Shown here: positions 23,191-56,897 of the stretch, in pieces | How positions within the stretch are numbered: position 1 is the first letter of the stretch | How the letters are laid out: every line of letters starts with the position of its first letter | Assembly (NCBI GenBank): GCA_964016885.1 | Contig: OZ024742.1 | Coordinates: forward strand, 35,278,001-35,342,000 | Source of the DNA: Eledone cirrhosa | Taxonomy: Eukaryota | Length of the DNA stretch: 64,000 nt | Direction: 5' to 3' | Notes under the pieces: generated by a model | Seen by the model: only the letters and a program-made list of their open reading frames with translations | The model's database searches: none | What the model was told of the DNA's origin: nothing | Program-made: the position numbers and the translations under genes

Positions 23191-23572
23191 CACACATGCG
23201 CATTTTTTATTCAAAGCTTTATTTTGAAAAGAAAAAAAGGATTTAAAAAATCAATGTACATCATAACACAGAGTTTTAACATATTTACTATTTCTATTGG
23301 TGATAATAATAATAATAATAATAATAATAATGTTTTCTTTATTAACCACAAGGGTTTACATAAAGTAGACATTTAGGACAGTACAGGACAATACAGGACG
23401 GTACAAATGGGCATTTCTGCGTGTAAAAAAAACGGAGGTTGAAATAAAATAACAAAGAAAAATTCCCCAATAGGGGGGAAACTTCCGAGGGACATTTGTG
23501 GAGAAAGCCCATTAAAAGACCACAGTGGCCCTGACCACCAGGGCAAGTGCCCTCTCCCAGTTTTCCACCTTT

Positions 23573-26500
23573 AATTTACAGACACATACTCAGAGAAAGC
23601 CCATTCATTCGGGCCATACTTGCTTCTCTCACCCATCTTTCAACAAAATGCTGGGAAGAGAGCACTTCCCTCTCTACCCTGATTTTCCTTTTCAAATGAA
23701 ATTTGAAAAAGTTAATCAGGGCATCACCGAAGAGGTAAGTGCTCGTCTTCAGCCCTTTCAAACGTGTCCACCATACTATCTCTTTCGCCATGGCCACCAG
23801 AGAGATAAAAACTGCCTACCCTTCCCGGCTAAAGGAAGGGGGCGGGGCAATCCTCACGATGGACTCAGCTGATAGCTGGATCCGTCCTACACGTGACAGC
23901 AGGTGTTCGACATAAATCCACAAGTCAGCAATGCTCGGACACTGGACGAGTGCGTGCAGGACGGTTTCGTCGCCCTGCGCGCATCTCGGACATACCCGGC
24001 TGACGGCACCTCCATGCCTGTAGAGTTTATCCCGAACTGGCAAGGCTCCTCGGTAGCACTGCCAGGCCAGGGATTTCTGGAAGTTGTCCATAGGCCCCGG
24101 CCCGAAAGTCCTTCCGAAGAGATTGGCTAGTTGATTTTCGTCGACGCCTAGAGTTTCTCCAAGTACATCGTCGCTCTTCCCCTCCACTAATCCCCTATAG
24201 AACGCCAAGGTGGAGTTTCCACCGATCACATTGCCCGAATGGTCGAGGGCTGTGAGCGCCTGAAGACATTCCAGTCTCCAAGCGCTCCCTCTCGGTTTTC
24301 GCTTGACCCAGGACTGCAGCTCCGTCAAGGAGACGAGCTGGGGAAAAACGTGTCTAGCAAACGGCGACCACACCTGATCACCGTCGAGGAAGAGGTGGAG
24401 ATGTCGTAGCCTGAGCGCGTGTCTGCGCATCATCAGCCACGGCATGCCCAGCCCTCCACGTAGCGGGTGTTGACAGCAGATGGACCGCCTGACCATCGGA
24501 GCGCGTCCCTTGCACAAGAAGCGAAACAGCAAACGCTCCAGCGCAGTCAGGCGGGGCTTAGGACAAGGTACGACGGTCAGGCGGTAGTAGATGACGGATG
24601 CGATGTACGCATTCGCCACCTCCGCTCGACCTTTCAGGGATAGCTTCCTCTCGGCCCATTTCTGGGTGAGAGAAGCCACCCTGCTGGTCACCTCGTCCCA
24701 GTTTTTGTCCGTCTGAAGGTCTGGACCGAACCAGACCCCTAGCAATTTAACCGGTCCGTCCGTCCAGCGCCCGACGACGCTGTTGGACGGCATGGACCTG
24801 CCTCTCCAGGTGCCGAGCTGCAGGCCCACTGACTTTTCCTGGTTGATCATTGCTCCTGTCACCGCTTCGTATTCTCTTAGTGTAGTGCTGATCGCCTCGA
24901 TGTGTTTGGCGTTCGACACCACTACGGTGACATCGTCGGCATATGCTGACACGGATCTTCCGCATCCTAGTTCGCGCGGGACCCCCCTCAACGTCTCCAG
25001 TTTGTGCAGTAATGGCTCGAGAGTCAATACGTACAATAGGGACGAGAGGGGACATCCTTGGCGGACCGAGCGCATGATGTTGAACGGTTCCGAAAGGTGA
25101 CCGTTCACTCTCACTACAGAGCAGATGTCGCTGTGCATGGCAGCGATCCAGCCTCTGAAGACGGGCCCAAAGCCAGCCGCCCTCAGGACTGCCGCTAAGT
25201 AACGATGGTCGACCCTATCGAAGGCTTTCGATTGATCTAAATTGATCAAAGACCCACCCTTGCCAGGTTCCCTAGCTACCCTCTCTACGATGTATCGCAT
25301 GAGGTGGAGGTTGTCGTGGATGGATCTGTCGGGAATGGCGCATGTCTGTGCCTCTCCCACCAGACCACCAACGACAAGCGCCAACCTCTTTGCTAGCACC
25401 TTGGCCAAAATCTTGAACTCTGTGTTTAGCAGAGTTATGGGCCTAAAATTATCTATGTTATCCCCCTTGTTCGGATCCTTTCTCAGCAGCGCCACCGCTC
25501 CTCGTCTCACAGAGCTGGGAATTCTCCCGTTCTGTTGCCAGTTGTAGTAGACGTCCGCCAAGAGGCCTCCGAACAAGTTTGGCATTTGTACGTAAAGTTC
25601 ATAGGGCAGACCATCCAAACCAGGCGATTTACCCCTTGTGCTGCCAGTCATTGCATCCCGTACTTCAGCGGTTGTTATCGGCTTTTCGCAACACTCCGCC
25701 TCAGTGGCCGAAAGCCGTGGCAGTCCGTCGAGGTAGACACTAAAGTCCATCCCTCGATCCGGCCCGCCACTGCCCCCGAACAGTTGAGCGAAGTGTCGCT
25801 GAAAAGTTTCACACATTTGCCCGGAATCGAGTAGCATGCGCCTGTCGTGGTCCACCAAAGACCGGATCGTGGCTTTATTGCCACAACGCGCCTCCGCCAC
25901 TCAGGCCCATTGAACGGCTTTCGTCCCCTCGTGTCTGAGAGCACGCACCCTAGCTCTGACAACGCAGCCTTCGTGCTTTGCATTGAAGAATTGGTCAAGG
26001 GCCAATTTCGCCGCAAGTACGTCGGTCGCGATGCCTTTGCTAAGCGCCTCATCTAATTTTCTAACTAGTTCTCCCTCTGCTCTATTTTTCTCTATTGCTA
26101 AAGTCTTACTAAACCTAATGGACTCTATTCTAATTGCTCTTTTCAGAGCAAACCACCACTTGTTGTTGACGATGGCCCCCGTCAACGCCCGCTTAACTAG
26201 TTCGCTAATCCGGTCTCTGTAGGCCTTGCGCGCTGGTAAGGACGCGTTTAGCTTCCAGTAGCCGGGTCCTCGCCTATGAAGCCTATCTAAGTCAAGCACA
26301 CAGATCACGAATTTGTGGTCCGTGTAGCTGACTATCTTGAATTGTGGACAACCTATGCTAGACCTATCTATTTCCCTACAAAATACTCTATCTAGATATG
26401 ATCTGGATGACCCTATGCGATTTGTCCAAGTCCACATTGGTACATTCGGGAAATCCATTCGGTACCTGTCAGACAGTTCAAAACGTCTGAGCAGGTTGGT

Positions 26501-26996
26501 GAGACTCTTGCACCCTCCTTCCCTATCCACTAATCCCACACAATCCCAGCGTGCATCTAAGATCCCGTTCCAGTCGCCCACTAACACTAAAGAGTGGGAC
26601 GTTCCAAGAAAGGTCTCCAGACGCCGGAAGAAATCAGGCCGCCCTGCTCCTGTCGGGGCATAGACGGCCACTAACCTGAAAGCTTGCCCGTCTCCGCTGG
26701 TCACGTCCAGCACCACCAACTTATCTTCTGGGTCCAGGAAGATGGCCCGTATGGCAAGATCCAAACCTCTCCGAAAAAGCACAGCAACTCCTCCCCCCGA
26801 TCCCGGACGGCTGGGAGATGCGTACACATCGTAGCCGCCGAAGATCGGTGCGAAAGCCTGTGCTTCGGAGATTCTGGTCTCGCTGATGGCCACTACATCT
26901 ATGTTTAGTGACCTGAGGTCGTTGAGCAGGTGGCCCTGCTTCCATGACGACCCCAAGCCACGCGCATTTATGCTGCCTATTCTGAGTGAGGTCATG
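23573..26996 (-). pseudogene. Tx1 ORF2 (APE-RT-zinc motif) with two in-frame nonsense codons
   Basis: One frame from MTSLRIGSINARG to the C-terminus, interrupted by TGA (about 25901, plausibly from CGA) and TAG (about 23816; GAG in the related copy at about 56376). Confidence 0.85.
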
Positions 26997-27512
26997 TTGA
27001 AAAGGAGTGGAAAAGATGGGAAAGACCACTTACCTTCTCGTAGAGGAAGGACGGTTTTTCCATCCTTTTCACTGCTTGTGGCCTCCTCAGGAAGGATGTC
27101 CTTATAAATCCTCCTGGAGAGTGCTTGTCGGAAGTCTCCGATGTCTTTGGGGAATTTTTGTTTTAGTATCATGTACGTTTTCTGTGTGATGCGAGTGATT
27201 TGTATGTGTGGAGGTGGTGTGAATTTTGGGGTTGTTGTGTAGTCTTTTTCTGTAATGCTGGTGTTGTGTTGGATGTAGTGTAATAATTGCTTGTTCAAAT
27301 TTAATGCTGTGTAGTGTGTATCGTTTTGGTTGTTTTGTTTTGTTTGCGTTTGTTGTGGGTTTGTTTCTGTTTCGCATTTTGGTGACTTTTGTGGTGTAGG
27401 TGATGGTGGTGTTGGAGTTAATGATGGTGATGGTGTTGGTGTTTGGGTTGATGGGGTTGGTGATGCTGGTGTGGATGGTGGCATATCTGTCCTAACTTTT
27501 TTGTTTCTTAGT

Positions 27513-29028
27513 TTATTTGTTTCCCTCTGTATTTTGTTTTTGGAGGGGGAAGGAAGAGAATTTTTTTCTTTTTTGGTTTCTTTTTGTTTTTCCGGATATC
27601 GTTTCCCACTCCTCGTCGTCACAATCTGTCTCCAGTTGTGATAGGCCGGGGAGTGGAAAATCCTCCACAGCCGTTAGTTTTGGTTGTGGTGTGGTGGATG
27701 GTGTAGGCACTGGTGCTAGTTCTGAAGCGTTGGGTGGTGGTGGTGTTGGTGTTGGTTTTGCTGGTGGTGGTAGTGGTGTTGGTTTTGCTACTGTTGCTGG
27801 GGTTGTTGCTGTTATAGTTGCTTCTGTTGTTGCTGCTACAGTTGTTGCTGCCATCTCTGCTACTGGTGGTGTTGATGGTTGTGTCACTGGGGTGGGTAGG
27901 AGAGGTGGCCTCAACCTTTTAGCCTGAGGGCAGAAAGCCCTTAGGTGGGTTCCTTCACCACAAACGACACACCTAGGTCTTCTGCCCTCGACAATTACCG
28001 TGAGGTGGCTGCCGTCAGTGAGGTCTATTACCTCTGGGATCTCCTCAATGCTTTTTTGGTCCGCTTGGATTAGGAGCTCCATCCCAGATCCGGACCAGTT
28101 TTCCTGCTTTTCTTTTGCTATTGCTATTATTTTCGTGTTGGCTTCGATGCCGGCGAGGACAGCCGCTATTAGCCAGGGAATTTCGATGGCCGGTGGAACG
28201 TGGGTCACCCTGATCTTTACGAGTCTCTGGCCACAATAGCTTGGGACGAGTGTGAAGTCGTCACTTTTTAATGGGGCCATGGAGTGTTCTCTAGCCTCCT
28301 CTGGTGTTTCAAAGAACACATCCACGGTTCCATACTTTTTCCCACGTCTGATGTGGGTTTTTCTTGCCCACACATGTCCCAAAGCTTTTTGGATTTGGGA
28401 CTCGGATGCCCGTTCCACTCGGCACGATTTTACATTTATTGTTCTATATGACACGGTGCATAGGCGCCGATGCTCCATTTTATTAGGTGGGGGGGGGGGT
28501 GAGGCTGACCCTGTACCCATCTTTCTTTACCATTTGTTTGGCATTTTCTAAATCCTCTTGAGTTACCGTGAATGCTGCGAACTGTTTTGCTACTATGGCG
28601 AAACTGAGGGTCGGTTTTATAATGTCATTGTTGTTGTTGCTATCGTTATTTGTGTTAATATTAATTTTAGTTTCAGTTGTGGTGGTGATGACGTCAGTCG
28701 TCTTTGGTGCGGAAGAGTCCGTTTTGCTTGATTTCATTTCGACATCACGAGTTAATTTATTTTTTCTTCTTTTGTTTCTGTTGTCGCGGTGGTGGTGGGG
28801 GTGGTGGTTGTCGCGGTGGTGGTGGTGGTGGTGGAGGCTTTAACACCTGCAGTCATTGGTAATGGCGGGAAATGAATGTCTGCCTGAGACAAATTTAAAA
28901 TATTGCTACTGCTTATATTTTTTTTTGTGTTGGCAAACGTAGTAACATTTACAATGGTGGTGTCAGTGTGAGGTGTTATTTTGTGAGGAAGGCTTTCAGC
29001 TGCTTCGTGCAGAGGGGAATTAGCCATT
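27513..29028 (-). pseudogene. Tx1 ORF1 (nucleic-acid chaperone, zinc knuckle), frameshifted
   Basis: Segments MANSPLHE..., MKSSKTD... and ...PPPPNKMEHRR...CVVCGEGTHLRAFC join across frameshifts, one in the G-run at about 28488-28499. Confidence 0.7.
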
Positions 29029-29879
29029 TTTTTCAAAGAAATTTTTGGATAATAATAAAAGTTAAAATTTTGGGCACAAGGCCCCAATCTTTTTGGGTGT
29101 CCTTTTCGGAAAACAATGTATGTGTGCTTATAAACAGTTAACAATAAAATTTTCCATAAATGGCAATTTTTAACAAACGGAAAAAACAAACCTTTGCGGA
29201 GCTCACGATGATACGATTTACTACGTAGGTCGCCAATAATAATAATAATAATAATAACAATAATTACAAATATAATAATTGAAAATGAGAAAATTCTGAT
29301 AGATCAATATTTTGTTTCAGATTTCAACTTTGTATCTTGAAACTAATAAAAATGAAAGTTAGGAAGGGAAACAATAAAATAAAATAAACTTAAAATATTT
29401 TCACCGAATTATGAACAAATGCAAGGATTTTTAAGAGAGTTTTTAGTTTCATTCAAATAGATGTTTTGTTTAGGTGGCATTAATAATATTATTATTATTA
29501 TTATTATTGTTCTTTGAGTCTCAGTCATTGATGTTAGTTAACTGGAAAGTTTGTTGAAATGAATATCAAGCCACTACCTGCAGCCTCAGATATTCTTATT
29601 TATTATTATTATTGACTTCTGAAGCGAAAGCACGCTTCGCATCAGCTCTGTTAAATTTCCAATTTTTTTTTTTTTATTTTTCAACCGACTCTAACCTTTT
29701 GATGGAGTTTTAAACTTGACAAGAGTTTGGAGGAACTGACCTGCTTGTCACAGGTGGTGCAGTCATGTTCACTTGAATCCCCTACACTCACACCTTTACG
29801 GGAGCGGGTGTCGACTGTTAATTTTCAGAAAAAAAAATTATAACATGGACACCACTGGTAAGAAGGGATAACAGTGAAA

Positions 29880-30256
29880 TATCTCATATATATGTATATA
29901 TATGTATCATCATCATCATCATATATGTATGTATGTATATATATATATAAGTATATATATTTATATATGACTATATATATATGTATATATATATATGTAT
30001 ATGTATATATATATATATGTATATATATATGTGTATATATATGTATATATATATGTATATATATATAAAATACGTAGTTAAGAAAGCCACAACAATGCAG
30101 AGGGAAATCTTGAGGTAGGAAGTGAATGATAGATAGGAGAAACAGGTGAAAGTGAAAATTGACAGAGACAAAGATGAAAACAAAACAGAGGTAGAAGGGT
30201 TACCGTAGTGGAGATTATATATATATGTATATATATGTATATATTATATATATATG

Positions 30257-30309
<53 letters not shown>

Positions 30310-30531
30310 CTATATATATATATATATATATCTATATATATATATGTATATATATATGTATATATATGTATATATATATATATGTATATATATATATGTA
30401 TATATATATGTATATATATGTATATATATATAATATATATGTATATATATGTATATATATATATATATAATATATATGTATATATATGTATATATATATA
30501 TATATAATATATATGTATATATATGTATGTA

Positions 30532-30563
<32 letters not shown>

Positions 30564-30618
30564 CATACATATACATACATATGCATATACATGTATGATG
30601 ATGATGATGATACATATG

Positions 30619-30649
<31 letters not shown>

Positions 30650-30798
30650 GTATATATGTATATATATGTATATATATATATGTATATATATATATGTATA
30701 TATATGTATATATATATATGTATATATATATCTATATATATATGTATATATATCTATATATATATATGTATATATATCTATATATATATGTATATATA

Positions 30799-30851
<53 letters not shown>

Positions 30852-30870
30852 GTATATATATATATGTATA

Positions 30871-30957
<87 letters not shown>

Positions 30958-31062
30958 GTATATATATATATATATATATCTATATATATGTATATATATG
31001 TATATATATATATATATATATCTATATATATGTATATATGTGTATGTATATATATACATATA
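29880..31062. repeat. Very long compound (TA)n/(TATG)n tracts
   Basis: Directly visible, with a short unique insert at about 30070-30210. Confidence 0.95.
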
Positions 31063-32127
31063 GATTGTACATGTGGCCAGTGCTCTGGTGCAATAAGTAG
31101 CAGCAAGTGCCCACAAAATACTAGCTCTTTCAATTGCGCAGAGGGTTCTATAGAAATAGTGGACAGCTTCCGTTACCTGGGTGACAAAATCAGCAGTGGG
31201 GGAGGGTGCTCTGAAAGTACAGTAGCTAGAGTCAGAACTGGATGGAAAAAGTTCAGAGAGCTTATACCATTATTAGCCGTTAAAGGGTTCTCTCTAAAAA
31301 TGAAAGGCAGGTTGTATGATGCCTGCATACGAACAGCAATGTTGCATGGCAGTGAGACCTGGGCATTGTGTGCAGAGGATATACGCAGACTAGAGAGGAA
31401 CGAAGCTTGCATGCTCCGCTGGATGTGTAATAGTAACATACGTGAACGGCAAAGCATAAGCGAACTAAGGAAAAAATTAGAAATAAGAGGGATCAGATGT
31501 TGTTTACTCAAGAGAAGGCTACGTTGGTATGGTCACGTGATGCGCATGAAAGACGACAGCTGTATAACAAAGTGCAGGGCAATAAAGATAGACGGTAGCT
31601 ACGGAGTAGGCAGACCCAGAAAAACCTGGGACGAGCTGATAAATTCCGACCTCACACACTTACACCTCTCCAAGACAATGTCACTGGACCGAGACCTTTG
31701 GCGGTATTCAGTAATAGAGAAGACCCGCCTTACCTAAATACAAAGTAAAACCTACTACAGTCAGTAGGCATCTCTAACAAAATACACCCCCGTCCCACCA
31801 CCACCACCCCCATCCACACCACCCCCTCCTATGTAAAGTTATGTTGGTGCCACAACATCCAGGCCGAAACAAATGAGATCGTGTAGGTATCACGACAAAA
31901 AAACACACAGTCCACGCTGTAATGTGGCCGTGTAGGCAACACGGTAAAAACCTCCCAGCCCCACACTGTAAATGTGGTTGGTGTTAGGAAGGGCATCCAG
32001 CTGTAGAAAACCCGCCAGACAGTCCTATGCGAGCAAGACAATCACTCTTGCCTCAAGTGGGAAAACCCCCGTCCAAACCCATGCAAGCGTGGAACACGGA
32101 CGTTAAACGATGATGATGATGATGATG
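31063..32127 (+). mobile_element. Second, more truncated copy of the PHD-RTE LINE, embedded in (TA)n
   Basis: Near-identical to 22010-23190 apart from the 3'UTR duplication. (GAT)n tail. Long (TA)n on both sides. Confidence 0.93.
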
Positions 32128-32208
<81 letters not shown>

Positions 32209-32209
32209 G

Positions 32210-32296
<87 letters not shown>

Positions 32297-32297
32297 G

Positions 32298-32346
<49 letters not shown>

Positions 32347-32389
32347 GTATATATATATATGTATATATATATATGTATATATATATATG

Positions 32390-32421
<32 letters not shown>

Positions 32422-32521
32422 TATGTATACATGTATATATATGTATATATATATATATATATATGTATACATGTATATATATGTATATATATATATGTAT
32501 ATATATGTATATATATATATG

Positions 32522-32600
<79 letters not shown>

Positions 32601-32625
32601 GTATATATATGCATGTATATATATG

Positions 32626-32663
<38 letters not shown>

Positions 32664-32763
32664 TGTATTTTATTTTATATATATGTATGTATATATATAT
32701 GTATTTTATTTTATATATATGTATGTATATATATATGTATTTTATATATATATATATATATAT
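32128..32763. repeat. Compound (TA)n tract
   Basis: Directly visible. Confidence 0.95.
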
Positions 32764-33449
32764 AGAAAAAGAGAAAAAGGGGGAGAAAGAGCATTCCTGT
32801 CAAAAACTGCAGCGGAGATGATGGAAGACAGTGTCTCTTAATGGAGACAAAAGCAAAACAACAAAACCATATTATTTTAAATTATACGGTTTTTTAATAC
32901 AGTAAATAAAAATATCGTGAACACAACTAGCAAGAATAACAACAGCAATAACAACAATAATGAAAACAGCAATAACAACAAAAACAGCAGCAATGAAATT
33001 GAAAAAGACAATAACAGACACAATTATAACAATGAAAACATCGACAACAATAACAGCAACAACAACAACGAGCCAGCAATTCAACCAAAAATGCCAGGAC
33101 TAGCAGTGAGATATCTTTCGCTGGTGCTACAAAATCTTTTTTGCAATGAATCGTCTACTCCTAGGAAGAAGTAAAGTAAGCTAGAGTGCTGTTGGAAAGA
33201 GCCGACCATACAGTCAACCTCAACACCCCTAGAGACACCAATCAAAATATGGTGTATCACACAGTACCCCATTATTATTGGATTAACCCCTTAGCATTTA
33301 CATTACTCTATATTTACTATTGTATTTTCATGGAAATGGTTTTATCTCACATAATATCCAATCTATAAGATTTTGATATTATTTATTTGGGGAACAACAC
33401 TTTAACATAAGTATGAGTGGCTGGTTGTGGCCGATTTTAATGTTAAAGA

Positions 33450-33980
33450 GTTAAAACCTAGAAAAGTGGAGAGAGCATCAGAAACACAAATTAAAAAAAA
33501 AACCTACATACAAAGGAGCAGGGCTTTTGGCACGGTGGAGGTGAGATTTGCAAAAGATCTCATTCCCTACAACCCTTACAAAATGACAAGATCCTACTAG
33601 TCTCTTATTACTGCAGACAGGGACTGGTAAGGTTCTGCATACAACAGGTACCACCTGAAATAACCATTGATAGACATGGAGGAAAACTAGTTAAGGTTAA
33701 GGGTGGAAATTTTCATCGAAACCAGTCAAAGGAATGTGGATACAATTCCTGAACAGTTACATCTCCCAGACAGCATCATCCTACCCATTAGGGTAGAAGG
33801 AACGAAGGCCAAGAGCCGGAAAGCAACAGACACATATTCATACACCTACACCTCCACCACAACTAGCAACCTCACCACCATCAACACCACAACAGACACC
33901 AACAACATCCCAAGCAAAACCAAACCCACATCCACAACAACAACAACAGGATACAAACATCACACACTACACAGCAATGA
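33450..33980 (+). mobile_element. Degenerate Tx1 ORF1 fragment
   Basis: KVERASETQIK...GTVEVRF...QVPPEI...EIFIETSQRNVDTIPEQLHLPDSIILPIRVEG resembles RVERASESQIQK...GTVDVFF...HVPPAI...ELLIQADQKSIEEIPEVIDLTDGSHLTVIVEG of the 23-29 kb element. Confidence 0.7.
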
Positions 33981-34104
33981 ATAAGTTTTTATAATGTGTT
34001 GTGTATATGTTCATTTCACATGTGCTTTTATGCATATTCTGCTTATATGTTTGTGTATGTTTCTTTCACTCTATTCCATTTGGCTAATGTTTGTTTTTCC
34101 CCAG

Positions 34105-34218
34105 GTATTAACTGCTGAGGAACTTGATCAAGCAAAGAAATCCATTGCCTATGGTTGTATCAAGTATGCGGACTTATCCAAAAATTGTACTCACGATTAT
34201 GTCTTCTCTTTTGACCGG
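34105..34218 (+). CDS. RARS1: Arginyl-tRNA synthetase coding exon
   Basis: ccccag acceptor, cgg|gtaagc donor, 114 nt. [38 protein letters not shown] contains the ArgRS motif [11 protein letters not shown]. Confidence 0.96.
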
Positions 34219-35128
34219 GTAAGCCAAATCAACCATCATTGTCATTACAAATATATCTCCTGTTGTTGTTTAGCCAGAGTTTATCTTTGCTTGAACAGAC
34301 TTATGACCAAAGCTATTCAATCTGTGATCAGCCCATCATATTTTTATGTGCATTAAAACCATGTCTTTCTTTCTTCCCCATGTTAATAGGGTGTAATTTA
34401 AGGGAGATTTGACAGCTATTTCCAGCAGGTTGAGCAAGCATCACATAAAAGCTCCTCCATAGGATTATCTTAAGCCAATGTTTATAATAATTTGCCTATG
34501 TTTGAAACCTTTATTACAAAATAATACCATTATTGCTGATAGGAAGGACAATCAACTGTAGAAATATTTAAAAAATGGAACATATGTGCCAAACATTAAC
34601 CTGCACTGAATAAAACCATGGTGATACAGCTAGTCTGCTGACACAGACTGGCTGGATCATGACTACATTATCCATGGGCTTTGTCTTCCTCCCTTTTTTC
34701 CACCCTATCACCAATGTCAAAGGGCCATGGTTGCTGCCCATCCTCCTCCAACTAAACCAAATGAAAGTCTAAAGGAAGGACAATATTCATAATATCCACA
34801 GGCTCCAAATTTAATGATAGATCAATGTGTTTATGTTGATAATGTCTGAACATAGATATCTCGGTTTAAAACATCTCTACTGGGAACTAATTATTGGCTC
34901 ATTGAAAATGAATAAAGATAAGCTATAATATTAATTAACTAAAAAATGTTCATATGATTTTAAATGAAACTTGTCAGATACTACCTTGTAATATTATTTT
35001 CTCCAGCAACTTAGACAGGGAGGGAAGGGGTGTAACTGTCACTCTTTGTTTTTGCCTCTCAGATAATGTTGTTTTTGTTACTCACTTAATTAATGTGTCT
35101 TTGTCGTTCACCCACTCTTTGACAACAG

Positions 35129-35187
35129 ATGCTGGATGATCGTGGTAACACAGCAGCATATTTGTTGTATGCCTACACAAGAATACG
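35129..35187 (+). CDS. RARS1: Arginyl-tRNA synthetase coding exon
   Basis: caacag acceptor, cg|gtaagt donor, 59 nt. MLDDRGNTAAYLLYAYTRIR contains the conserved ArgRS GNTAAYL motif. Confidence 0.96.
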
Positions 35188-41118: not shown

Positions 41119-41151
<33 letters not shown>

Positions 41152-44583: not shown

Positions 44584-44631
<48 letters not shown>

Positions 44632-45440: not shown

Positions 45441-45795
45441 CTCTATATACAAATGAGCTTCGTCGGCCGATGTTCACAAGCTTTTGCCTTATACTCGTAT
45501 TCGCATCCAAGAAGGTGTTAGCCCCTCTGAAACAGTGTCGTTAGAGTGCTTTCACTTGCTAGACCAGTGGTGGTTCATCACTGCTTCTAAAATTTCATAG
45601 CGAAGGCTATAATAGTGTTTATTTACATAGACATTTTGTATATGATTTAATATACAACTCCAGTAACACACACGTATATATATATCAGATAGTGTGTGAA
45701 TCTTTTCATATATATATATATATACACACACACATATATATATATGTGTGTATATATTTATATATGTATATATATATGAAAAGATTCACACACTA

Positions 45796-45839
<44 letters not shown>

Positions 45840-46289
45840 GTGTGTGTTACTGGAGTTGTATATTAAATCATATACAAAATCGAAACGGCTTGAGCTCTGT
45901 CGTCGGGGTCATACTTTTTCCTATTTCCCACTCTACTACCCTAAGTATTGAGTACTCTGGTGCGTTATGGTCCATCTGTTTCTTTACTACAATTCCTTTG
46001 TTATGTATATATATATATATGTGTGTGTAAATGGAATGTCTAATAACGTAGTTTCCTTATAAAACAAATTTCCTATATTTAGAACTTTGGAGTTTTATGA
46101 ACTTTTATGCCCGACGGCTAAACTAAAATTGTTTTGATAATAAATGAAGTCTATCCGCGTGCGAGGTTACACGTTAACTTAAAGGTGGGGGAATACGTTC
46201 GGGGAGTAGAGGGGAGGTTTGGAATGAAACAAAAGTTAAAAACAAAATAATCAAAATCTAAGATATTACAAGAACGAAATAGTACTACA

Positions 46290-46507
46290 ATTCTCCTCCG
46301 TTCTTCATCGGACATGTTGAGACCAAAACCCTCGTATTTTGTTTGGTGATGTCGCTTTAAATTGTACTCTTTGAACACAGCGATTGTCTCTTGACACAGC
46401 AAACATACCGCCTTATTCCCGGCACAGGTAAAAGAATACTTGTGTAACCAATCTTCTTGGAATACACGACATTCTTGGTCAATTTTGTGCTTTTTAGCAG
46501 AAGTCAT
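46290..46507 (-). mobile_element. hAT (Charlie/GTF2IRD2-like) transposase N-terminal fragment
   Basis: KKHKIDQECRVFQEDW..Y.F....KAVCLLCQETIAVFKEYNLKRHH is a BED-type zinc finger. Confidence 0.75.
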
Positions 46508-47164
46508 TATTATGTTTAGAAGAAATTATGTGGTGGAAACGAAATGCGGATGTCAACAGGGCGCGCAAGCTCTCCTATCCCCATGTCATCTCAAGAGATT
46601 CTGGTATTGAAATCCAGGACTTGGCAACGGCAATGAACGACAGACCCACGTGAGATCAATTGTTGAGTTCATTTCGGCTGAGGCCGCCGGATGATGATGA
46701 TGATGATGATGATGATGAAAACTCTGTGATTGTGTGCTTGTCTGAAATTTAATACTGTCAAAACGGCGCATAATGAGAAGATACTTTGAAAGGAGTTGCC
46801 CCTGATATAAGAATACAAATTGAATAAAACAAGTTTCGAATAAATCGGAGCACAGGATTCCAAGATACGGGGTTTTTCCGGGTACCTTCATAAATAGAGA
46901 GAGAGAGAGAGAGAAAGATAGAGAGAAAGGGATAGTGGTTGTGAGAGAGTATATTGAAAATGAGACACAGAGGGAGAGAGAAAGAGAAGGAAAATGGAAG
47001 AGAGAGAGGGTTGGTGGTGGTGTTGAATGAAATTATAACTGGTGACTTCAAAGAATCGAATACAACATTAGTGTTTCCTGCTAAATAGAAAGGGTTTCTA
47101 AGTGTATGTGTGTGTCTGTGACCAGTGTAGAAAGGCCATAGCCACCCATATATATATATATATA

Positions 47165-47540
47165 CACGAGGGCAATCCCAAAAGTAAGGTCTCCTTCTGA
47201 TATTGCAACTTTTCTGTTAAAATCCTGTGGATGGTGCTTCGGGAAACCCCAGGAACCAAAATGCAGAGAGCATCCAGAGTGATCCGCCGATCTTTACGCA
47301 TGTTTTCCTCGGAAGGGAAAATCCTTTTGGGATTACTCTCGTAATAATAACTGCGCAAAATTCGTACTTGGCGGTAGCGTTCAACGGGAGCTCCATTCTC
47401 GACGGCTTCCAAGCCAAGATTGAGCATCCCAGCGAAGCGCGTGCGTGCTTGTTTGGGAGTGAAGGAAGCACCAATCACAACAGTGTTGCCAACAGCCGTA
47501 CGAACATCGCTTTGGAGACCTTATTTTGGGGATTACCCTC

Positions 47541-47543
<3 letters not shown>
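47165..47543 (-). mobile_element. Internally deleted mariner element (MITE-like)
   Basis: About 30-bp TIRs cacgagggcaatcccaaaagtaaggtctcc / ggagaccttattttggggattaccctcgta, flanked by TA. Internal mariner HTH remnant RKDRRITLDAL...VSRSTIHRILTEKLQYQK. Confidence 0.85.
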
Positions 47544-47574
<31 letters not shown>

Positions 47575-47579
<5 letters not shown>

Positions 47580-47772
47580 AACCAGTAAGACCCCGACAGC
47601 TGAGCTCAAGCCGTTTCGACGGCTAATTCTGGACGAGTCCAGAATTAGCCGTCGAAACGGCTTGAGCTCAGCTGTCGGGGTCTTACTGGTTCCTATTACC
47701 CACTCTACTACCTCAAGTATTGAGTACTTTGGTGCGTTATGGTCCACCTGGTTCCTTACCACATTTCCTTCG

Positions 47773-47775
<3 letters not shown>
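47575..47775 (+). mobile_element. Penelope-like terminal fragment (family B) with perfect palindrome 47575-47696
   Basis: 60-bp arms around a 2-nt centre. Contains GAAA-CGGC-TTGAGCTCA-GCTG-TC-GGGGTC. (TA)n on both sides. Confidence 0.75.
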
Positions 47776-47802
<27 letters not shown>

Positions 47803-47806
<4 letters not shown>

Positions 47807-49739
47807 AATCAAAAAGAACAGAAAGATGCAGTAAAAGAGATTTATTCGGTTCTAACGTACGTTTCAATAGACATCAATTTGCCTAGATCTCGCTGCATCT
47901 ATAATATTATATAGTTAGTAGAGCATTCGACATCCAATGTACAATTGATTCCATATCATCAGAGATTATGTTTACCGTACCAGAATGTTCAGGTTTTTAT
48001 AGGAATTCAAGTGAAGTTGAAGTAGAGAAGAAGGAGTATGTGACAAAGATGAGAGAGATAGGGGGTTTTTCATAGTTGTTGAGGTAAAACAGAGGGGAGG
48101 ATAAAATACGATAATGAAGTCTAGATATGGACTAGTCCAACTGTGTGTGTGCTAGGGAGATGGTAGACGTTGATAGGTTTATGATCTATGATACATGGAG
48201 GCAGGGGAGATTAGGCCGAGTGACTTGTAAAGTATGTAGGAGGAGATGTTGAATAGGGGAGATGTGGTCAATAAAAGGCATAGCAATAATCCATGGGGAC
48301 AGATAGAGGAGGTAGAAGGAAGATAGAGGAAAGCAGAAGTCGCAGGATCAAATCAAGCCAGGTTTGTATTTCGAGAACGTAGCCTTGAGTCTGTGATTGC
48401 AATATAGAGTCCTTTCCGTTCTGTTGTTGAGAAGAGTATAATTGGATTTTAGTATGTAAAATAGCTCCATATTGCATAATCGGCAGTAAGGCTGGCCTGC
48501 ACGATATGCGGAAGCACTAGAAAGTTTTGTCCATTTCAAAGTGTATTGCAGGTTACTTTCGCGCAACTGCCAAATTGTATTGGCTAAGGTAGTTACGGAA
48601 CGGTATTTGATGTTCTTCATCGAACTACGGTGTTGGTACCAACGAGATTTAAAAGTGGTAGAGGTACAGCCGATATAATGCCATCTCCGGTTATTCGATT
48701 CAACGGTGCATTGATACACCATATTGGATTCCATGCATTTGTTATTCAGAGGGCAACGATCAGGTAGGTTGCAGTTGCACTTATCAGCTCTTGTAGTATT
48801 ATTATCTTGTACAGGTTGCGTTAGGTTTATATGTGTGTCTGCTGCAGGAGGGTTTACATTCAGTGGTTGAGAGTTAGAGGAAGTGTTAATGTAGTTTGGG
48901 GTGCTTCGTGTGGATGTGCTGACTAATCGTTTGGAGTTAAGTTTTTTAATAATTAGATCGAGATTGGGTGCTGTAGAATATGAAAGCTTAATGGACCTTA
49001 GATTTAGTATTTTAGCGTATCGATGTGCAGGAGGAAAATGTGTTTTGATTAAATTGAAGAAAAGTGAAGAAATTTTAGGAGATGTTGAGGCATTGTATAT
49101 ACTTTTGAGTACAACCTGACTGAAACAAATTTCTTGGATGTAACATTTAATCTAGAGACGGGGGAAATCCGCCCATTCCATAAATCTAATGAAAATATTA
49201 TGTATGTTGACCATAAATCTAATCATCCACCCTCGGTTATACGGTCTATCCCTCGGGCCATCTCCCTTAGAATATCACGCCTGTCATCTACCCCCCAGGT
49301 CTTTAGTGAGCACGCTTACTACTATAACAACGCGCTTAAGGCGGCTGGATACCAAGACAAAATAGAGTACATAGATCCAGCACACCAATATAGAAATAAG
49401 GGCTCACAACGCACTAGCATAAACAATAATATAGGTACGATACACAACATACACTTTCCGCATAGGCATAGTCGAAATAGAAGCACACAACCCAACCTAG
49501 CTAGAAAGCGGAATCGTAGCTACCTTTGGTACAACCCAATATACAATGCCTCAACATCTCCTAAAATTTCTTCACTTTTCTTCAATTTAATCAAAACACA
49601 TTTTCCTGCTGCACATCGATACGCTAAAATACTAAATCTAAGGTCCATTAAGCTTTCATATTCTACAGCACCCAATCTCGATCTAATTATTAAAAAAACT
49701 TAACTCCAAACGATTAGTCAGCACATCCACACGAAGCAC
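47803..49739. mobile_element. Penelope-like element with 5' inversion (GIY-YIG part on -, RT thumb part on +)
   Basis: Minus: CNCNLPDRCPLNNKC..SNMVYQCTV...YIGCT...FKSRWYQH...CRLCNMELFYI...LLNNRTE...CNH. Plus: FLDVTFNL...YVDHKSNHPPSVIRSIP...RISRLSS. 48901-49100 is the inverted copy of 49540-49739. Confidence 0.92.
47847..47977 (-). ncRNA. Type I hammerhead ribozyme with extended helix II, downstream of the Penelope GIY-YIG ORF
   Basis: Minus strand: CGGU...UCU-CUGAUGA-UA-UGGAAUCAAUU-[about 60 nt]-AAUUGAUGUCUA-UU-GAAA-CGUACG-UU^-AGA-ACCG. Confidence 0.75.
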
Positions 49740-50378
49740 ATTTGACTAAACTTTATTTGTTCCAATCTAATATATGTTTAACGCAGCCTAAAGCCTTCTT
49801 ATATTATATCTAACTTTGAAGGTTGACTTTGCCTTTCATCCTTACGGGGTCGATAAAATAAAGTACCAGTAATGCATTGGGTAATTGCTGGCCTTGTGCC
49901 TAAAGTAGAAACAATTATATCTAACTTTGAGTCAAAATAGATAGAAGATATCTGAATTAATTTCCAATACCATCGTCACATCTACACTATCAGCTGATTT
50001 GCATTTTTTGCACCTTTTAGTATGGCGGATATTTAAATATATTTACATTACCAATAATATTTAATACGACCCTAAAGTAGTATATGCAGGAAGTGCTGGA
50101 CTCTGAAAAAGATTTCTTCTAGTTGTTTATAAATTTGCACCTTTTCCAGTAACCCCTAATATTTTAATATTATTATAAGACTTTAAATAATATGTTTGCC
50201 ATCCTAAAATGGAGAAATTTCAATTTTTAAAAATTAAAATTTTTTTTTAACTAGTTAAGTTTTTCCAAATATCTAAAATTAAAGTTAATTTAAGTACTTT
50301 TTGTAATAAAAAAAACTTAATTTCTCTTGTTTATTAATGTCATATTAAAAATGTTAACTGTAGATAAATAACCTTGAT

Positions 50379-52274
50379 ATGATGTCTACTGCAAAGAGGC
50401 TGAAGTTAGATACCAGCAGTAAGGTTAGACAGTGGTGTGATGATTATGTTAGATATGGATTTCAAAAAGCTGACACTAAAAAAGATACACCAGATCAGCC
50501 CATGTGTTTGCTATGTTCAAAAGTTCTATCAAATAGCTGTTTAAATCCTGCAAAACTTAAAAGACACCTTGATACTAATCACACCAATGATAAAAGCAAG
50601 TCACTGGAATACTTTACTTCGCTGAAAAACAACATCAAAAAATCACAAGCTAATATGTATGACTTGTTTTGTAAAAAGTCAGATAGAAATAAAGCTTTAA
50701 CAAGAACATCTTTTGAAATTTCACATTTGATTGGTAAAAACAAGAAACCATTTACATTAGGAGAACAGTTAATTCTGCCAAGTATAAAAATGTCTACAGA
50801 GAATCTTTTTGAAAGCTGCAGTATTAAGGACAAAGAAAAATTAAGCCAGTTACCATTGTCAGCAAATACCGTAAAAAGAAGGATAATTGATATTTCTTCT
50901 GATATAGAAAATCAGATACTAACTGCACTAAAGAAAAGCACATGTTTTGGTCTGCAAGTGGACGAAACTACGGATATTAATAACAAGGCTCAATTAATTT
51001 GCTATGTACGGTTTGTAGACCTTGATAAAAAAGAATTAGTAGAAGAGTATTTGTTTTGTCTGGTATTAGACATCACAACTAAAGGTCAAGATATATTCAA
51101 TAAAATTGAAGAGTATTTTTTAAAAAATGGTGTATCTTGGAGCAAGTTGACTTCAATAACAACAGATGGAGCAGCTGCAATAACTGGTAAAAATTCTGGT
51201 TTAATTGCAAAAATTAAAGAACAGACCCCAAATTGTATTTCAAATTATTGTATGATTCATTGAGAGGTTTTGTGTTCAAAAAAATTCAAAGACAGAGATG
51301 CTCAAATATTAAATGACCAGCTGAAAGACATTGTCAAAATTATCAATTTGATCCATGCAAGAGCAACAAATTCTAGAATGTTTGAATCTATTTGTGAATC
51401 TTCTAGAAGTAATTATAATAGATTGTTATTGAACAATGATGTGCGTTGGCTGTCTTTTGGGGATGCTATGAAGAGAGTTTTTGAACTGAGAGAAGAAATA
51501 ATAGTTTTTCTAAAAAAAACAGAATGATGAAAGAGCAAATGTATTAGAAACCATTGAATGGAATGTGCAACTCGCTTATTTAGTAGACATTTTTGGTGAA
51601 CTGAACAAACTAAATAAGTGTCTTCAGGGTAACAATGCAGATATTTTTACTTCAATCAATTTTATTACATATTTTCAATCAAAATTAAACATCTTTATAA
51701 AAAGAATTGAATCGGACAATTACTCATTACTTTCAAACCTTGAAATAGAGCTTAAAAAGAGAGAAGATTTTGACTCCAGCAATCTAAAGAAGATTATTCT
51801 TTCTCATTTAAATGGGCTTTCCACAAGTTTTTCAGATTATTTTGACTTGATGGAAAAAGATATTGTTAGCGGAAATTTATGGATAAAAACCCGTTCACCG
51901 AGATCGAGCAGTTAGTGTCAGAAAATGACGCTGGAAAGTGTAAAAATTTACTACCTGCACAATGCTTACATCAGTTGATGGATTTGAATTCAAACGAAGA
52001 CCTGAAAGTGATATTCGAAAGCAGAAAGAAAGAACTATGGATCGACTTATTCTTGATTGGGGAGTTTAATGAAATCAGCCAACTTGCATTGAAATATTTG
52101 ACTTTATTCCCATCTAGCTACTTGTGCGAAGGGTTTTCGCAGTTGGTAGAAATCTGCACAAAGAAGATGAATAAACTGTCAGCAATTGACGAGTGTATGA
52201 GACTGGCATTAACTAGTGTTGAACCTCGATTTTCTAGATTCACTGATGAGGCGCAGCAGCAGAAAAGCCACTAG
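50379..52274 (+). pseudogene. hAT Buster/Charlie-type transposase (ZBED5/SCAND3-like), disrupted
   Basis: BED finger (PMCLLC...KLKRHL), DETTD, TDGA, CMIH, VRW and YLCE-GFS motifs. Stop at 51261 and frameshifts at A-runs near 51520 and 51885. Confidence 0.9.
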
Positions 52275-52411
52275 TTAATTGTATTCGATTACATACACAC
52301 GCATGAAACACTAAAATAAATAAATACTTTATTTTTTTGTTTGAAAAGTTTTGTATTGTATAGGTTCCGTGAAGAATTCAAAATATTTAGAGGGTTTCTC
52401 GGTTTTAGAAA

Positions 52412-52434
52412 GGTTGGCGACCACTGCCCTAAGG
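52412..52434 (+). mobile_element. Right TIR of the hAT element and candidate 8-bp target site
   Basis: GGTTGGCGACCACTG (reverse complement CAGTGGTCGCCAACC), then CCCTAAGG, which fits the Buster NNNTANNN target. No left TIR found. Confidence 0.7.
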
Positions 52435-52914
52435 TACTTGAATCTTCAATCCCTGTAGTGGCAGTAAGTTATTTCACCAACACTCAACATATATATATAC
52501 CACAAATAATATCATAAACTTAGAGAAGAAGACGTAAAGCAACAAAGAAATATAGAAGGGGAGTTGAAAGGGAAGATGTGGAGACAAAAGAAGGGAAAAT
52601 AAAGAAAAGAAGAAAAGGAAAGGATAAAGAAAAGGAGAGGACAAAAAAGCCGTTGTATTCAGACCCTAAACAGAAAATTCAAAAATTATTTTTATTATTT
52701 ATCAATGAATGCCGCTTGCATTGGAATACGCTTTAATTAATTATTTCCCTTCTTTTCTCTCCACATCTTCCCTTTCAACTCCCCTTCTATATTTCTTTGT
52801 TGTTTTACGTCTTCTTCTCTAAGTTTATCATATTATTTGTGATATATATATATGTTGAGTATTGGGGAATAACTTACTGCCACTACAGGGATTGAAGATT
52901 CAAGTACCTTAGGG
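52427..52914. repeat. About 157-bp inverted repeat upstream of a hammerhead (Penelope-like terminus, family A)
   Basis: 52427-52584 pairs with 52758-52914, with a few mismatches. Confidence 0.85.
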
Positions 52915-52940
52915 TTATGTCGTATATCCAATCTCTTATA

Positions 52941-53003
52941 TATTTTATCTGATGAAAACGTACTGAAACACCATTGTACCTTTGAAATATGTATAATAAA
53001 ATA
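52941..53003 (+). ncRNA. Type I hammerhead ribozyme (family A)
   Basis: UAUUUUAU-CUGAUGA-AAACGUAC...GUACCUUU-GAAA-UAUGUA-UA^-AUAAAAUA. Helix I is a perfect 8 bp. Confidence 0.8.
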
Positions 53004-53156
53004 TATACTTTGGTTATGATAATATTTCTCATTTATTAATATTTTGAATAATATTATAGATACTCCAGATAAATTCCAGTCGAATGCTTCTAATCTATTG
53101 TAAAATTGAATTCGTTGAATAATCAACGAACCATATAAACGTTTGATTATATATAT

Positions 53157-53219
<63 letters not shown>

Positions 53220-53537
53220 TACAAACATATATATATACACACACATATGGTGGTGGTGGTGGTGCTGGTAGTGGTAAGGGGTAGTGTTAGTGTTGGGGTG
53301 GAGATAAAAGTAGTGGTGATGGTAGTATTGGTGATGATAATAGCAACGCCGTGTCCGGTGAACCCACAGGGAGAGAAGGTAATTAATCAGTTAATTAGTA
53401 AATTAGATAGCTAATGAATTAGTTAGTTAGTTAGTTAATTAATTAATTAGACAAAGAACAAAAAATAAAATTCATATAGTTCAATGAAGAAGTCTGATAT
53501 TGAACTTCGGAAATATAATATAAAATTATAAAATATG

Positions 53538-53583
<46 letters not shown>

Positions 53584-54024
53584 TATATATATTTGTGTGT
53601 GTGTGTGTGTATATGTGTGCGTGTGTGTGTATGTAACTTACTCATTTACATTACTAACTCACCCCACCCCGCCACACATAGTTGTACGTATATATATGTG
53701 TGTATGATTGTACATCTGCGTGTGCACGCACCACCGCCAGTGCTACCACCACCACCACCGCCTCCACCACCACCAGTGCCACTGCCACCACCAAAACCCC
53801 CACCCACCCACCCAAGCCACAACCACCACCACCAGTGCCACCACCACCACCGCCGCCACCACCACCTACATACATGCATATGTAGACATACACATGCACC
53901 CGTTTATGTGCATATTCACACTACCTGTTGAGGAGAAATTACAACTGACGGAAACAAAGCAGAATGAGGCAAAGGAACCATGGTGGGAACGCCGCATTGA
54001 AAATGACATAGGTTTGCAGTTGAG

Positions 54025-54215
54025 CCCCTAGCAGTGGAGACCTCTCGTGTCCTTGACCCGAGGGCTACTTCCCTACTTGCCACCATAGGCGCTGAGCTGG
54101 CTAGCCGCAGGTGGGAGCCTCGTCAGATGGAATGGTTCTTCCACCGCATCTCCCTTACCATCCTCCTAGGAAACGCCTTCTCCATTCTGTCCGCCGGAGC
54201 TGTAGGGCGGCCAGA
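54025..54215 (+). mobile_element. CRE-like non-LTR retrotransposon C-terminal (RLE) fragment; further pieces at 54808-54945 and about 57415-57555
   Basis: AVETSRVLDPRA...EPRQMEWFFHRISLTILLGNAFSIL, EPRELEWLFQRISRAVLRGNAFSIL and GESREGAWLFQRISLAI match the (L/F)FQRIS..I.RGNA end of CRE-type ORFs (recalled). Confidence 0.65.
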
Positions 54216-54370
54216 ACGTGGGACCCCATTTGCTCATAATACAGAGAGAGAGATGGGGAGGGCAGGAGAGATGGAGGTGATGACAGTGGGAGTTCGCCTC
54301 TTCTGTGTTCGGACCTGGTGTCCAGCGTCAGCTGTCCATAAGGAGGCTGTAATTCATCTACTATTATCTA

Positions 54371-54563
54371 GGGGTGGTGGATTGGCAGTATCGGTAGAGG
54401 GCCGGACACCATGCTTTGACGCATAGAGTTACGGCCCTTGCCATTCTGAGTTCAAATCCCGCCGAGGTTAACTTTGCCTTTCATCCTTACGGGGTCGATA
54501 AAATAAAGTACCAGTTATGCACTGGGTAATTGCTGGCCTTGTGCCAAAAGTAGAAACAACTAT
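54371..54563 (+). mobile_element. SINE family A
   Basis: Full copy. Confidence 0.85.
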
Positions 54564-55121
54564 TAACTAGGGCACCAGGGGTGTTTGGAACATAGCTTCA
54601 CACACATCTCACGTTACTGTTACTGTCCCTGATCAAGTCACTAGCTTGACAAGGCGATATTTAAGTAAAATTGAGTTATGGTTTAGAAGAAAATAGAAAA
54701 AGGGGAAAAAGACTGATCGAGAGACATAAGACAAAAAATATAAACTATGGAAGAATGATTTCTATACAGTAATGCAACAAAGGATTTTGTCGAAAAGGCT
54801 AGATCACCAACATAGGCGCTGAGCTGGCCAGCCGCAGGTGTGAGCCTCGCGAGCTGGAATGGCTTTTCCAGCGCATCTCCCGTGCCGTCCTCCGGGGAAA
54901 CGCCTTCTCCATTCTGTCCGCCGGAGCTGTGGGGAGGCCACCAATATGATTGACTGACTTGTCATTTTATCAGTCAGATGTTCTAATGATTCTATATATA
55001 TATGTCATAGTATATTACAGCATATTGAAGAAACACGTTTAAAACAAGGAGACTATGGAACAGCATAAAACGATATGAGAAATTGTTTTTATATTTTATC
55101 TATATTCTATATCTCCTATAC

Positions 55122-55182
<61 letters not shown>

Positions 55183-55203
55183 TTGTCTATCTATCTATCT
55201 ATT

Positions 55204-56841
55204 TGGAACCGGGACTACGAAAAGCGGGGTCGGCCTACGCCGATGACGTGACAGTAATGGTGTCGAGCACCTCGCAAATCGGGAAGATCGGCACCTTACT
55301 GGAGGAATACGAAAGGTTCACAGGAGCGAACTTGAACCGGGACAAATCCGTCGGTTTGCAACTCGGAACGTGGAGAGGCAAACCGATGCCTTCCGATGGC
55401 GTCGTCAGACGCTGGACGGAAGGACCGGTAAAGCTGCTCGGGGTCTGGTTTGGTCCCGACCTCCAGGTGGAGAAGAACTGGAACGAGGTGACGGCCAAGG
55501 TGTTTGCGCTCACCCAGAAGTGAGCCGAGTGAAAACTATCCTTGAAAGGTTGAGCGGAGGTGGCGAACACTTTTATAGCGTCCGTCATTTACTACCGCTT
55601 GACCGTCGTGCCTTGTCCAGCCAAAACGCTCACCAAAATGGAGCGCGCGCTCTTCCAATTCCTTTGTAAGAAACGGGCTCCTTTGGTGAGAAGAACCATC
55701 TGCTGCCAACACCCTTCAAATGGAGGGCTGGGGTTGCCGTGGCTGACGATGCGCAAACATGCGCTCAGGCTGCGGCACCTCCATCTATTCCTCACCAGAC
55801 AACCGGTGTGGGCCCCGTTCGTGAGGCGAGCCTTCCCACGACTTGTCTCGCTGACTGAGCTGCAGTCCTGGGTCAAGCAAAGACCGAGGAAAATGGGCGA
55901 CTGGCTCATCGAATGTGCTCAGGTGCTCACAGTCCTCTGGCAAACGGACCCGGCGATCAGTGGGGACTCCACTTCGACATTCTATAGAGAGTTGGTCCGC
56001 AGCAAGTGCGACGACACGCTCGGAGAAACTCTAGGCGTAGAGGAGGACGAACTGGCCAGTCTGTTCGGTAGGACCTTCCGCCCGAGATCAATGGACAATT
56101 TCCAAAAGTCCCTGGCCTGGCAGTGTTACCGAGGAGCTCTATCAATTCGAGACAAGCTCTACAGACACGGGCGCCCGGGTAGGGACCCTTCGAAAAAGAT
56201 CTGTCCGAGATGCGTGCGCGACGAGGAAACCGTCGCGCACGCATTTGTACACTGCTCGGGCGTTACCGACCTGTGGGGCTATGTAGAACGACTATTGTCG
56301 CGGGTGGGACCAATCCAGTTGACCACCGAGTCCATTGTCATGATCAAACCACCACCCTCCTTCAAAAACGAAGGAGAGGCGGTTTTCCGATGTGTTATGG
56401 CTATGGTGAAAGAGGTTATATGGTGGACGAGGTTAAAAGGGCTGAGGTCAGACACCTTTCTCTCCGGCGAGCAACTGATTCGTTTTTTCAAATATCATTT
56501 TGGAAGAAGAATCAGGATGGAGAGAGAGGTGCTGTACCCCAGCAAATTTTATAAAAGGTGGGTGAATGTGGCAAAGATGGCCCGAGTGGTTGGGCCTTCT
56601 CTCTATATAAGCCTGTAAGTTGAGGAAAAAGAGGAAGGGAGTACTCACTCTTGGTGCTCCTGGAGATGAGGGTTGTACATTTGTTCGGGGTGTGTACAAC
56701 CCCTGTGTAATGCCTCCCCCCTATTGGGGATATCAATTGTTATTTGTTATTTTATTAATAGTTTTATTTTCATATACCTGTATGTAAACTCCCCATTTGT
56801 ATTTGTCCCCTTCTTTTGTGCCCTTGTGGCTAATAAAGAAA
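55204..56841 (+). mobile_element. 5'-truncated Tx1-clade LINE inserted in an (ATCT)n microsatellite
   Basis: SAYADDVTV...KSVGLQLGTWRG...GPVKLLGVWFGPDLQ...CPRCVRDEETVAHAFVHC is homologous to the 23-29 kb element. Ends CCCTTGTGGCTAATAAAGAAA. (ATCT)n at 55122-55200 and 56844-56897. Confidence 0.93.
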
Positions 56842-56842
56842 T

Positions 56843-56897
<55 letters not shown>

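Follow-up and report, generated by a model that had tools for sequence, protein, structure and literature searches.

Introduction

The closest described counterparts of the elements analyzed here are Tx1-clade long interspersed nuclear elements (LINEs) that sit in microsatellites: Kibi in (TC)n and Koshi in (TTC)n of teleosts, and crocodilian Tx1 elements in (TTCC)n and (TTTC)n (PMC4494074; PMC3812793). We studied a 64,000-nucleotide stretch of the Eledone cirrhosa genome (assembly GCA_964016885.1, contig OZ024742.1, positions 35,278,001–35,342,000; hereafter the window, whose own coordinates are used throughout), which contains two related LINEs, element A in (ATT)n and element B in (TATC)n, and we compared them with their relatives across the genome. 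Like Kibi, Koshi and the crocodilian elements, these are microsatellite-resident LINEs with an apurinic/apyrimidinic endonuclease (APE) domain, and their related families use different units, tetranucleotides among them; they differ in their units (ATT and TATC), in their cephalopod host, in the presence of both specificities in one genome, and in their abundance of about 35,000 ends. The Kibi and Koshi targets, (TC)n or (TTC)n, are not those of the elements studied here, in which TC flanks occur only as a minor class within the TATC lineage. On sequence comparisons, we consider it probable that A and B represent two branches of one Tx1-like lineage that occupy the same register in ATT or TATC by means of endonucleases nicking different sequences.

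Three further systems bear on this reading. Tx1L of Xenopus laevis sits in Tx1D, a non-autonomous piggyBac derivative (PMC4494074; PMC1950540; PMC1919474), and its purified target site is nicked in vitro by its endonuclease (PMC1950540). The Eledone elements share the domain order of Tx1L, and one of their families, B6, likewise keeps to a single site within a TTAA-ended, non-autonomous element; however, their second open reading frame (ORF2) encodes ~1,140 residues compared to 1,308 in Tx1L, the endonuclease hairpin is two residues shorter, and A and B lie in simple repeats. Dong targets (TAA)n, Waldo ACAY, and Mino AC (PMC3812793). The ATT lineage shares this repeat with Dong, but the two are oriented in opposite directions. 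As a member of the R4 clade, Dong has another class of endonuclease. SART1 and TRAS1, which insert into telomeric repeats, and R1Bm resemble the elements studied here in having an APE domain and distinct insertion sites within short repeats, and target-like RNA ends have been proposed to help priming, as in SART1 and R1Bm (PMC7265360; PMC1919474); unlike the Eledone elements, they belong to the R1 clade and have been tested biochemically, and SART1 ends in poly(A).

According to a review, how such elements target microsatellites is not well understood (PMC3812793). In Octopus vulgaris, 80 L1-Tx1 families have been described, 13 of them recently active, and target-site analysis was not found in the available portions of that paper and its supplement (PMC13282606). 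Microsatellite-targeting Tx1 elements, tetranucleotide targets included, are already known; the ATT and TATC units were not found in print, in that a literature search with subscription journals and Repbase outside its scope returned no report of Tx1 on either unit, and Repbase entries may name such elements.

Two Tx1-like elements in different microsatellites

Element A (23332..29234, minus strand) is a full-length LINE of 5,903 bp and a member of subfamily A1 of the ATT lineage. It is bordered on its 5' side by (ATT)n (29235..29256, minus strand), which comprises the target repeat including its duplicated part, and on its 3' side by a second (ATT)n tract (23303..23331, minus strand; ATA × 9.7, 100%). 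The starting base of the element, directly after (ATT)n, was identical in 30 of the 30 best 5'-end matches to A in a genome search. ORF2 of A (23576..26995, minus strand) encodes the APE endonuclease, reverse transcriptase (RT) and a C-terminal zinc finger (PF03372, PF00078, PF13966) and is interrupted by two stops, at 25901–25903 and 23816–23818. ORF1 (27030..29027, minus strand), which has low-complexity ends and is frameshifted in this copy, had no match in Pfam; near 27960 it carries a motif that we take to be zinc-knuckle-like. In the conserved 3' terminus (23332..23358, minus strand), AATAAA stands six bases ahead of the junction, without poly(A).

Element B (55203..56843, plus strand), of TATC-lineage subfamily B1, is 5'-truncated within RT and, like A, is damaged. 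Tandem Repeats Finder placed (TATC)n at the truncation point on its 5' side (55122..55202, plus strand; TCTA × 20.2) and on its 3' side (56844..56901, plus strand; TATC × 14.5). The family match of B starts at 55202–55203, with a T microhomology, and its ORF2 remnant ends at 56618 and contains three stops. Over 1,397 bases, A and B share 72% identity. The initial annotation had described A with (ATT)n and B with a (TATC)-type repeat on both sides, three shared protein blocks, and a shared 3' end lacking poly(A). Both the repeat program and the sequence itself bear out the flanks, all three blocks occur in both translations, and the same 21-base end closes both elements; the annotation's placement of B at 55204–56841 identified the element correctly and needed new limits, with the end two bases beyond GAAA.

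A and B are Tx1-like APE/RT LINEs, and the intact layout of these elements has two ORFs, with an N-terminal APE endonuclease, RT and a C-terminal zinc finger in ORF2. In phmmer searches, the closest named protein to ORF2 was Xenopus Tx1L ORF2 (YTX2_XENLA; 246 bits, 32% identity), and human L1 ORF2p scored lower with the same query (149 bits). The link to Tx1L in RT trees was weak (64/92), with a reference set that held Tx1L and no L1 or Repbase sequences. An Argonauta protein is 71% identical to the element protein, and no sequence labeled Kibi or Koshi came up in the protein searches.

Lineages and their 3' flanks

Across the genome, the shared 21-base 3' end matched exactly 13,404 times, compared to 0 for its reversed control, and a variant end added 13,975 matches (control, 138). 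A looser 3' end was followed by ATTATT at 18,464 genome positions (control, 25) and by TATCTA at 16,497 (control, 5). Our main table comprises 320 loci, 1.45 Mb once merged, drawn from the best matches to A or B, 99 of the first 100 listed 21-base matches, ~70 of the first 100 variant-end matches, and loci from a search with subfamily A6; the sample is partly position-ordered and partly composed of best matches, and the shares below describe it rather than the genome. Ends were assigned to lineages by their 3' untranslated region (UTR) and never by their flank, and 285 of 310 were kept, the other 25 either falling short of 85% identity to any family or having B6 as their closest family.

In the 16 bases past the end, the ATT lineage had ATT in 125 cases, other sequence in 22 and TATC in none (n = 147), whereas the TATC lineage had TATC in 80, other sequence in 53 and ATT in none (n = 133); the remaining five of the 285 ends belong to B6. 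One repeat type thus made up 85% and 60% of the 3' flanks, respectively, compared to a chance background of 0.3–0.4% for the family-specific repeat at a random position, and no crossover between lineages occurred in 280 flanks. Flanks therefore do not vary randomly within a subfamily; random variation was one of two outcomes that the initial annotation had named as fatal to its proposal. The first five flank bases were ATTAT in 122 of 147 ATT-lineage and TATCT in 104 of 133 TATC-lineage copies. The TATC lineage is looser in its choice of site, occurring also at TA, TC, TACC and TGTC runs. A poly(A) run, taken as at least eight A within 30 bases past AATAAA, was absent from all 285 ends. A search for (CA), (GT), (TC) and (GA) flanks turned up no large family in (CA)n or (TC)n with the shared 3' end; it returned 331 matches, some double-counted (control, 9), and did not extend to (CAT)n, (TAG)n, (TTG)n, (CTT)n or other 3' ends; among the 100 listed of these 331, nearly all were TC behind TATC-type ends.

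A SINE-like (short interspersed nuclear element) 3' end followed by (ATT)n is a frequent landing site of ATT-lineage copies (L096, L105, L112, L164, L177). Another non-LTR element, which carries a C-terminal restriction-like motif, runs into the shared ATT/AAT array from the opposite direction and lies tail to tail with 30 of the 147 ATT-lineage ends, as in the 3' flanks of L042, L044, L046, L052, L060, L065, L073 and L090. From this motif we presume that it is of Dong/R4 type; a PDB search with the R4-like neighboring ORF gave no match.

Upstream repeats and target duplications

A 5' boundary was available for 216 copies, and 60 were excluded as uncertain. Because truncated copies cannot carry the repeat on their own 5' end, the repeat upstream of them is informative about the target. 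Upstream of truncated ATT-lineage copies we found ATT in 10, TATC in none and other sequence in 27 (n = 37), and upstream of truncated TATC-lineage copies TATC in 35, ATT in none and other sequence in 34 (n = 69), against the same 0.3–0.4% background. The lineage's own five-base core was present upstream in 18 and the other lineage's in none of the 37 ATT-lineage copies; in the 69 TATC-lineage copies these counts were 45 and 2 (background, 2.5–2.7%). Truncated copies lacking an upstream repeat possibly lost the target by deletion during 5' joining, or by later damage.

Target duplications of 11–22 bp were resolved in 14 of 106 truncated copies at imperfect sites (10 TATC-lineage, 4 ATT-lineage), compared to a mean of 0.13 and a maximum of 2 in 500 shuffles of the pairs. 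This count is confined to truncated copies, since including full-length copies inflates it (24 of 151, shuffle mean 5.8). The resolved duplications begin at the first base past the element, so the repeat core is part of the duplicated target, and at off-repeat insertions the family core was still first in the flank and inside the duplication. The repeats are therefore targets and not tails, and they are not restricted to 3' ends; such a restriction was the second outcome that the initial annotation had listed as able to overturn its view. A large share of flanks of one sequence type at both ends, together with target duplication, marks a target-specific Tx1 family, and the elements studied here show this combination; for gene and transposon targets, the published threshold is 20% of flanks (PMC4494074).

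Subfamilies and endonuclease comparison

The ATT lineage comprises at least six subfamilies (A1, A1b, A2, A3, A6, A7), plus older ones, and the TATC lineage at least five (B1–B5), plus the B6 family. The radiation of microsatellite-specific Tx1 families that the initial annotation had proposed is thus supported in outline; A and B are related and have different targets, as it held, and are members of two lineages rather than sister families. Subfamily A6 is very young: among the 149 matches listed, about 125 have a 1,150-residue open frame, (ATT)n stood on both sides in eight of eight copies checked, and identity was 98.8–99.7%. Intact ORF2 copies also exist for A1, A1b, B2 and B5. In A1b (L130, L133, L142, L144, L149–L153, L160, L168, L177), ORF2 is ~95% like that of A1, yet the 2.26-kb 5' UTR and ORF1 are unrelated, which points to a 5' module swap with the target unchanged.

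In RT trees, all subfamilies formed one clade (100/99), in which the TATC clade (100/100) was nested within the ATT lineage (94/93), and monophyly of the ATT lineage was rejected (approximately unbiased test, p = 0.00013). In the endonuclease tree, both target classes were clades (Shimodaira–Hasegawa-like approximate likelihood-ratio support, 87 for ATT and 95 for TATC), and the tree of the C-terminal region did not resolve them. The endonuclease thus tracks the target better than RT does. This conflict could reflect exchange of RT between lineages or faster change of the endonuclease, and the two trees differ on the direction of the target switch, as RT nests TATC in ATT and the endonuclease gives sisters. 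A metagenome scan for relatives of 50–54% identity, as pointers to the ancestral target, returned nothing.

Endonucleases of the two lineages are 62–66% identical and differ at 13 fixed positions. Comparison of the APE recognition loops, which the initial annotation had suggested, placed one of these differences, Ile in the ATT lineage and Ser in the TATC lineage, in alignment with the tip of the L1 hairpin, whose loop lies between T192 and S202 (PMC1950540). A predicted structure of the A6 endonuclease (mean predicted local distance difference test score, 94.8) aligned with L1 endonuclease at Z 30.4 and a root-mean-square deviation of 2.4 over 229 residues; the model supports the fold and says nothing about specificity. 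In our reading, the APE domain probably decides the target.

A third target: family B6

B6, which falls inside the TATC clade in RT trees, has at least 51 copies, based on 51 exact matches to a 37-base marker. In 30 of 30 loci it is joined to the same base of a 72-bp unit, which belongs to a TTAA-ended miniature inverted-repeat transposable element (MITE) with at least 4,402 copies in the genome; the window contains one unoccupied MITE of this family (33283..33454, plus strand). Because B6 arose within the TATC clade, its MITE targeting is independent of that of Tx1L. B6 keeps the hairpin of B1 and differs in another loop, residues 115–123; 7 of 10 bases at its site agree with the TATC register, and the same odd 5' junction recurs in 23 of 26 copies.

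The identity of the junctions, together with internal deletions and TTAA ends, suggested that B6 might be composite cargo of the MITE, and MITE divergence ruled this out. MITE tails around B6 were 87.0% alike (86 pairs) and empty MITEs 88.5% (326 pairs), compared to 98.2% for the B6 LINEs (435 pairs); since the tails are as divergent as empty MITEs and the LINEs are near-identical, the B6 insertions are independent. The 72-bp unit adjoining B6 was 95.8% alike between copies, close to the LINE itself (96.2%) and above empty MITEs (86.0%), and the second upstream unit was as homogeneous as the first (95.5%). The 72-bp units near B6 at L272–L274 and L351–L370 were ~95% alike between loci, compared to 86% for single units of empty MITEs. 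The B6 LINE may spread or seed 72-bp arrays.

Mechanism of target choice

In the reading we favor, the APE domain would nick one strand of (AAT)n or (GATA)n at a short core (ATTAT or TATCT on the top strand), reverse transcription would start at the nick, and a second nick ~15 bp away would yield the duplication. With AATAAA six bases from the end, transcripts would read on into the flanking repeat, and pairing of this repeat stretch with the nicked strand would explain both the absence of poly(A) and the precise junction. Insertion would leave target on both sides, so that copies stack head to tail; at 40 of 147 ATT-lineage ends, the 3' end abuts the 5' end of another copy. Most likely, the endonuclease sets the short core and RNA running into the repeat aids priming. 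The first part draws on the endonuclease tree, the cores at off-repeat insertions and the Tx1L precedent, and the second on the position of AATAAA, the missing poly(A), the contrast between full-length and truncated copies, and the SART1/R1Bm precedent.

Several observations weigh against assigning target choice to the endonuclease. The 53 of 133 TATC-lineage 3' flanks outside the main class are imperfect or other repeats, and a good 5' repeat is absent from 27 of 37 truncated ATT-lineage and 34 of 69 truncated TATC-lineage copies. In the endonuclease tree, the ATT group (87) stays under the tool's mark for strong support, the enrichment of fixed differences in the endonuclease is marginal (13 of 147 variable sites compared to 21 of 474 elsewhere, p = 0.059), the C-terminal region holds equally many (13), and any lineage marker would likewise sort by target. 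Moreover, B6 changed target while keeping the B1 hairpin, and the Tx1L hairpin, when grafted onto the distant L1 enzyme, did not bring its specificity along (PMC1950540).

Alternatively, RNA could be the main guide: both endonucleases would nick loosely in AT-rich DNA, the repeat carried over from the donor flank would pick the site, and a copy landing in a new repeat would found a new family. Such a scheme predicts target at the 5' end as well, and (ATT)n indeed lies upstream of 39 of 39 full-length compared to 10 of 37 truncated ATT-lineage copies (p = 1e-12); the common B6 junction, the LINE-like similarity of the adjoining 72-bp unit, the retained B1 hairpin and the partial match of the B6 site to the TATC register fit it too. 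However, off-repeat insertions begin with the family core, which is also duplicated and so was in the target; the matches described above include no (CA)n or (TC)n daughter family; the homogeneity of the second upstream B6 unit means that array homogeneity may account for the unit similarity; and the endonuclease, not RT, clusters by target. We regard RNA as main guide as unlikely. Least plausible by far is a tail model, in which the elements themselves add the repeats, and those upstream arise when copies stack behind older ones or survive passively where DNA is rich in repeats. In its favor, stacking is common, the genome is rich in microsatellites, and about half or more of the truncated copies lack an upstream repeat. 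Against it, the resolved duplications leave no space for a tail, many of the repeats upstream are part of unique DNA or of SINE ends rather than of another copy, and passive survival would yield neither zero crossovers nor a single strand and register.

It is conceivable, and we propose it only tentatively, that one young lineage in one genome changed target twice, first between ATT and TATC by a dozen endonuclease substitutions and then from TATC to the 72-bp MITE unit by RNA-borne target. If this two-route reading holds, swaps among the naturally intact ORF2 copies, which both microsatellite classes have, would separate the routes. Enzymes that are 62–66% identical with non-overlapping targets, the fixed differences between them and the intact copies make the question of target change testable. 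With about 35,000 copies, the lineage also divides, extends and connects microsatellites throughout an octopod genome.

Other features of the window

A putative splice-donor-like GTAAGT closes ORF1 of A (27028..27033, minus strand). GTRRGT closes ORF1 in 12 of 12 references with a located ORF2 start, despite a shift in stop-codon register (A6 and A7 compared to A1 and B), and a further GTAAG/GTGAG motif lies 20–40 bases from several 5' ends; these motifs are possibly splice or U1-binding signals. Elsewhere in the window are a partial RT followed by a PHD finger, from another type of LINE (21260–22687, plus strand), a DUF4371 match that is probably a DNA-transposon remnant (50364–51263, plus strand), and a 3-kb CAC-rich tandem array of about 79 copies of a 40-bp unit with extreme strand skew (13755–16815).

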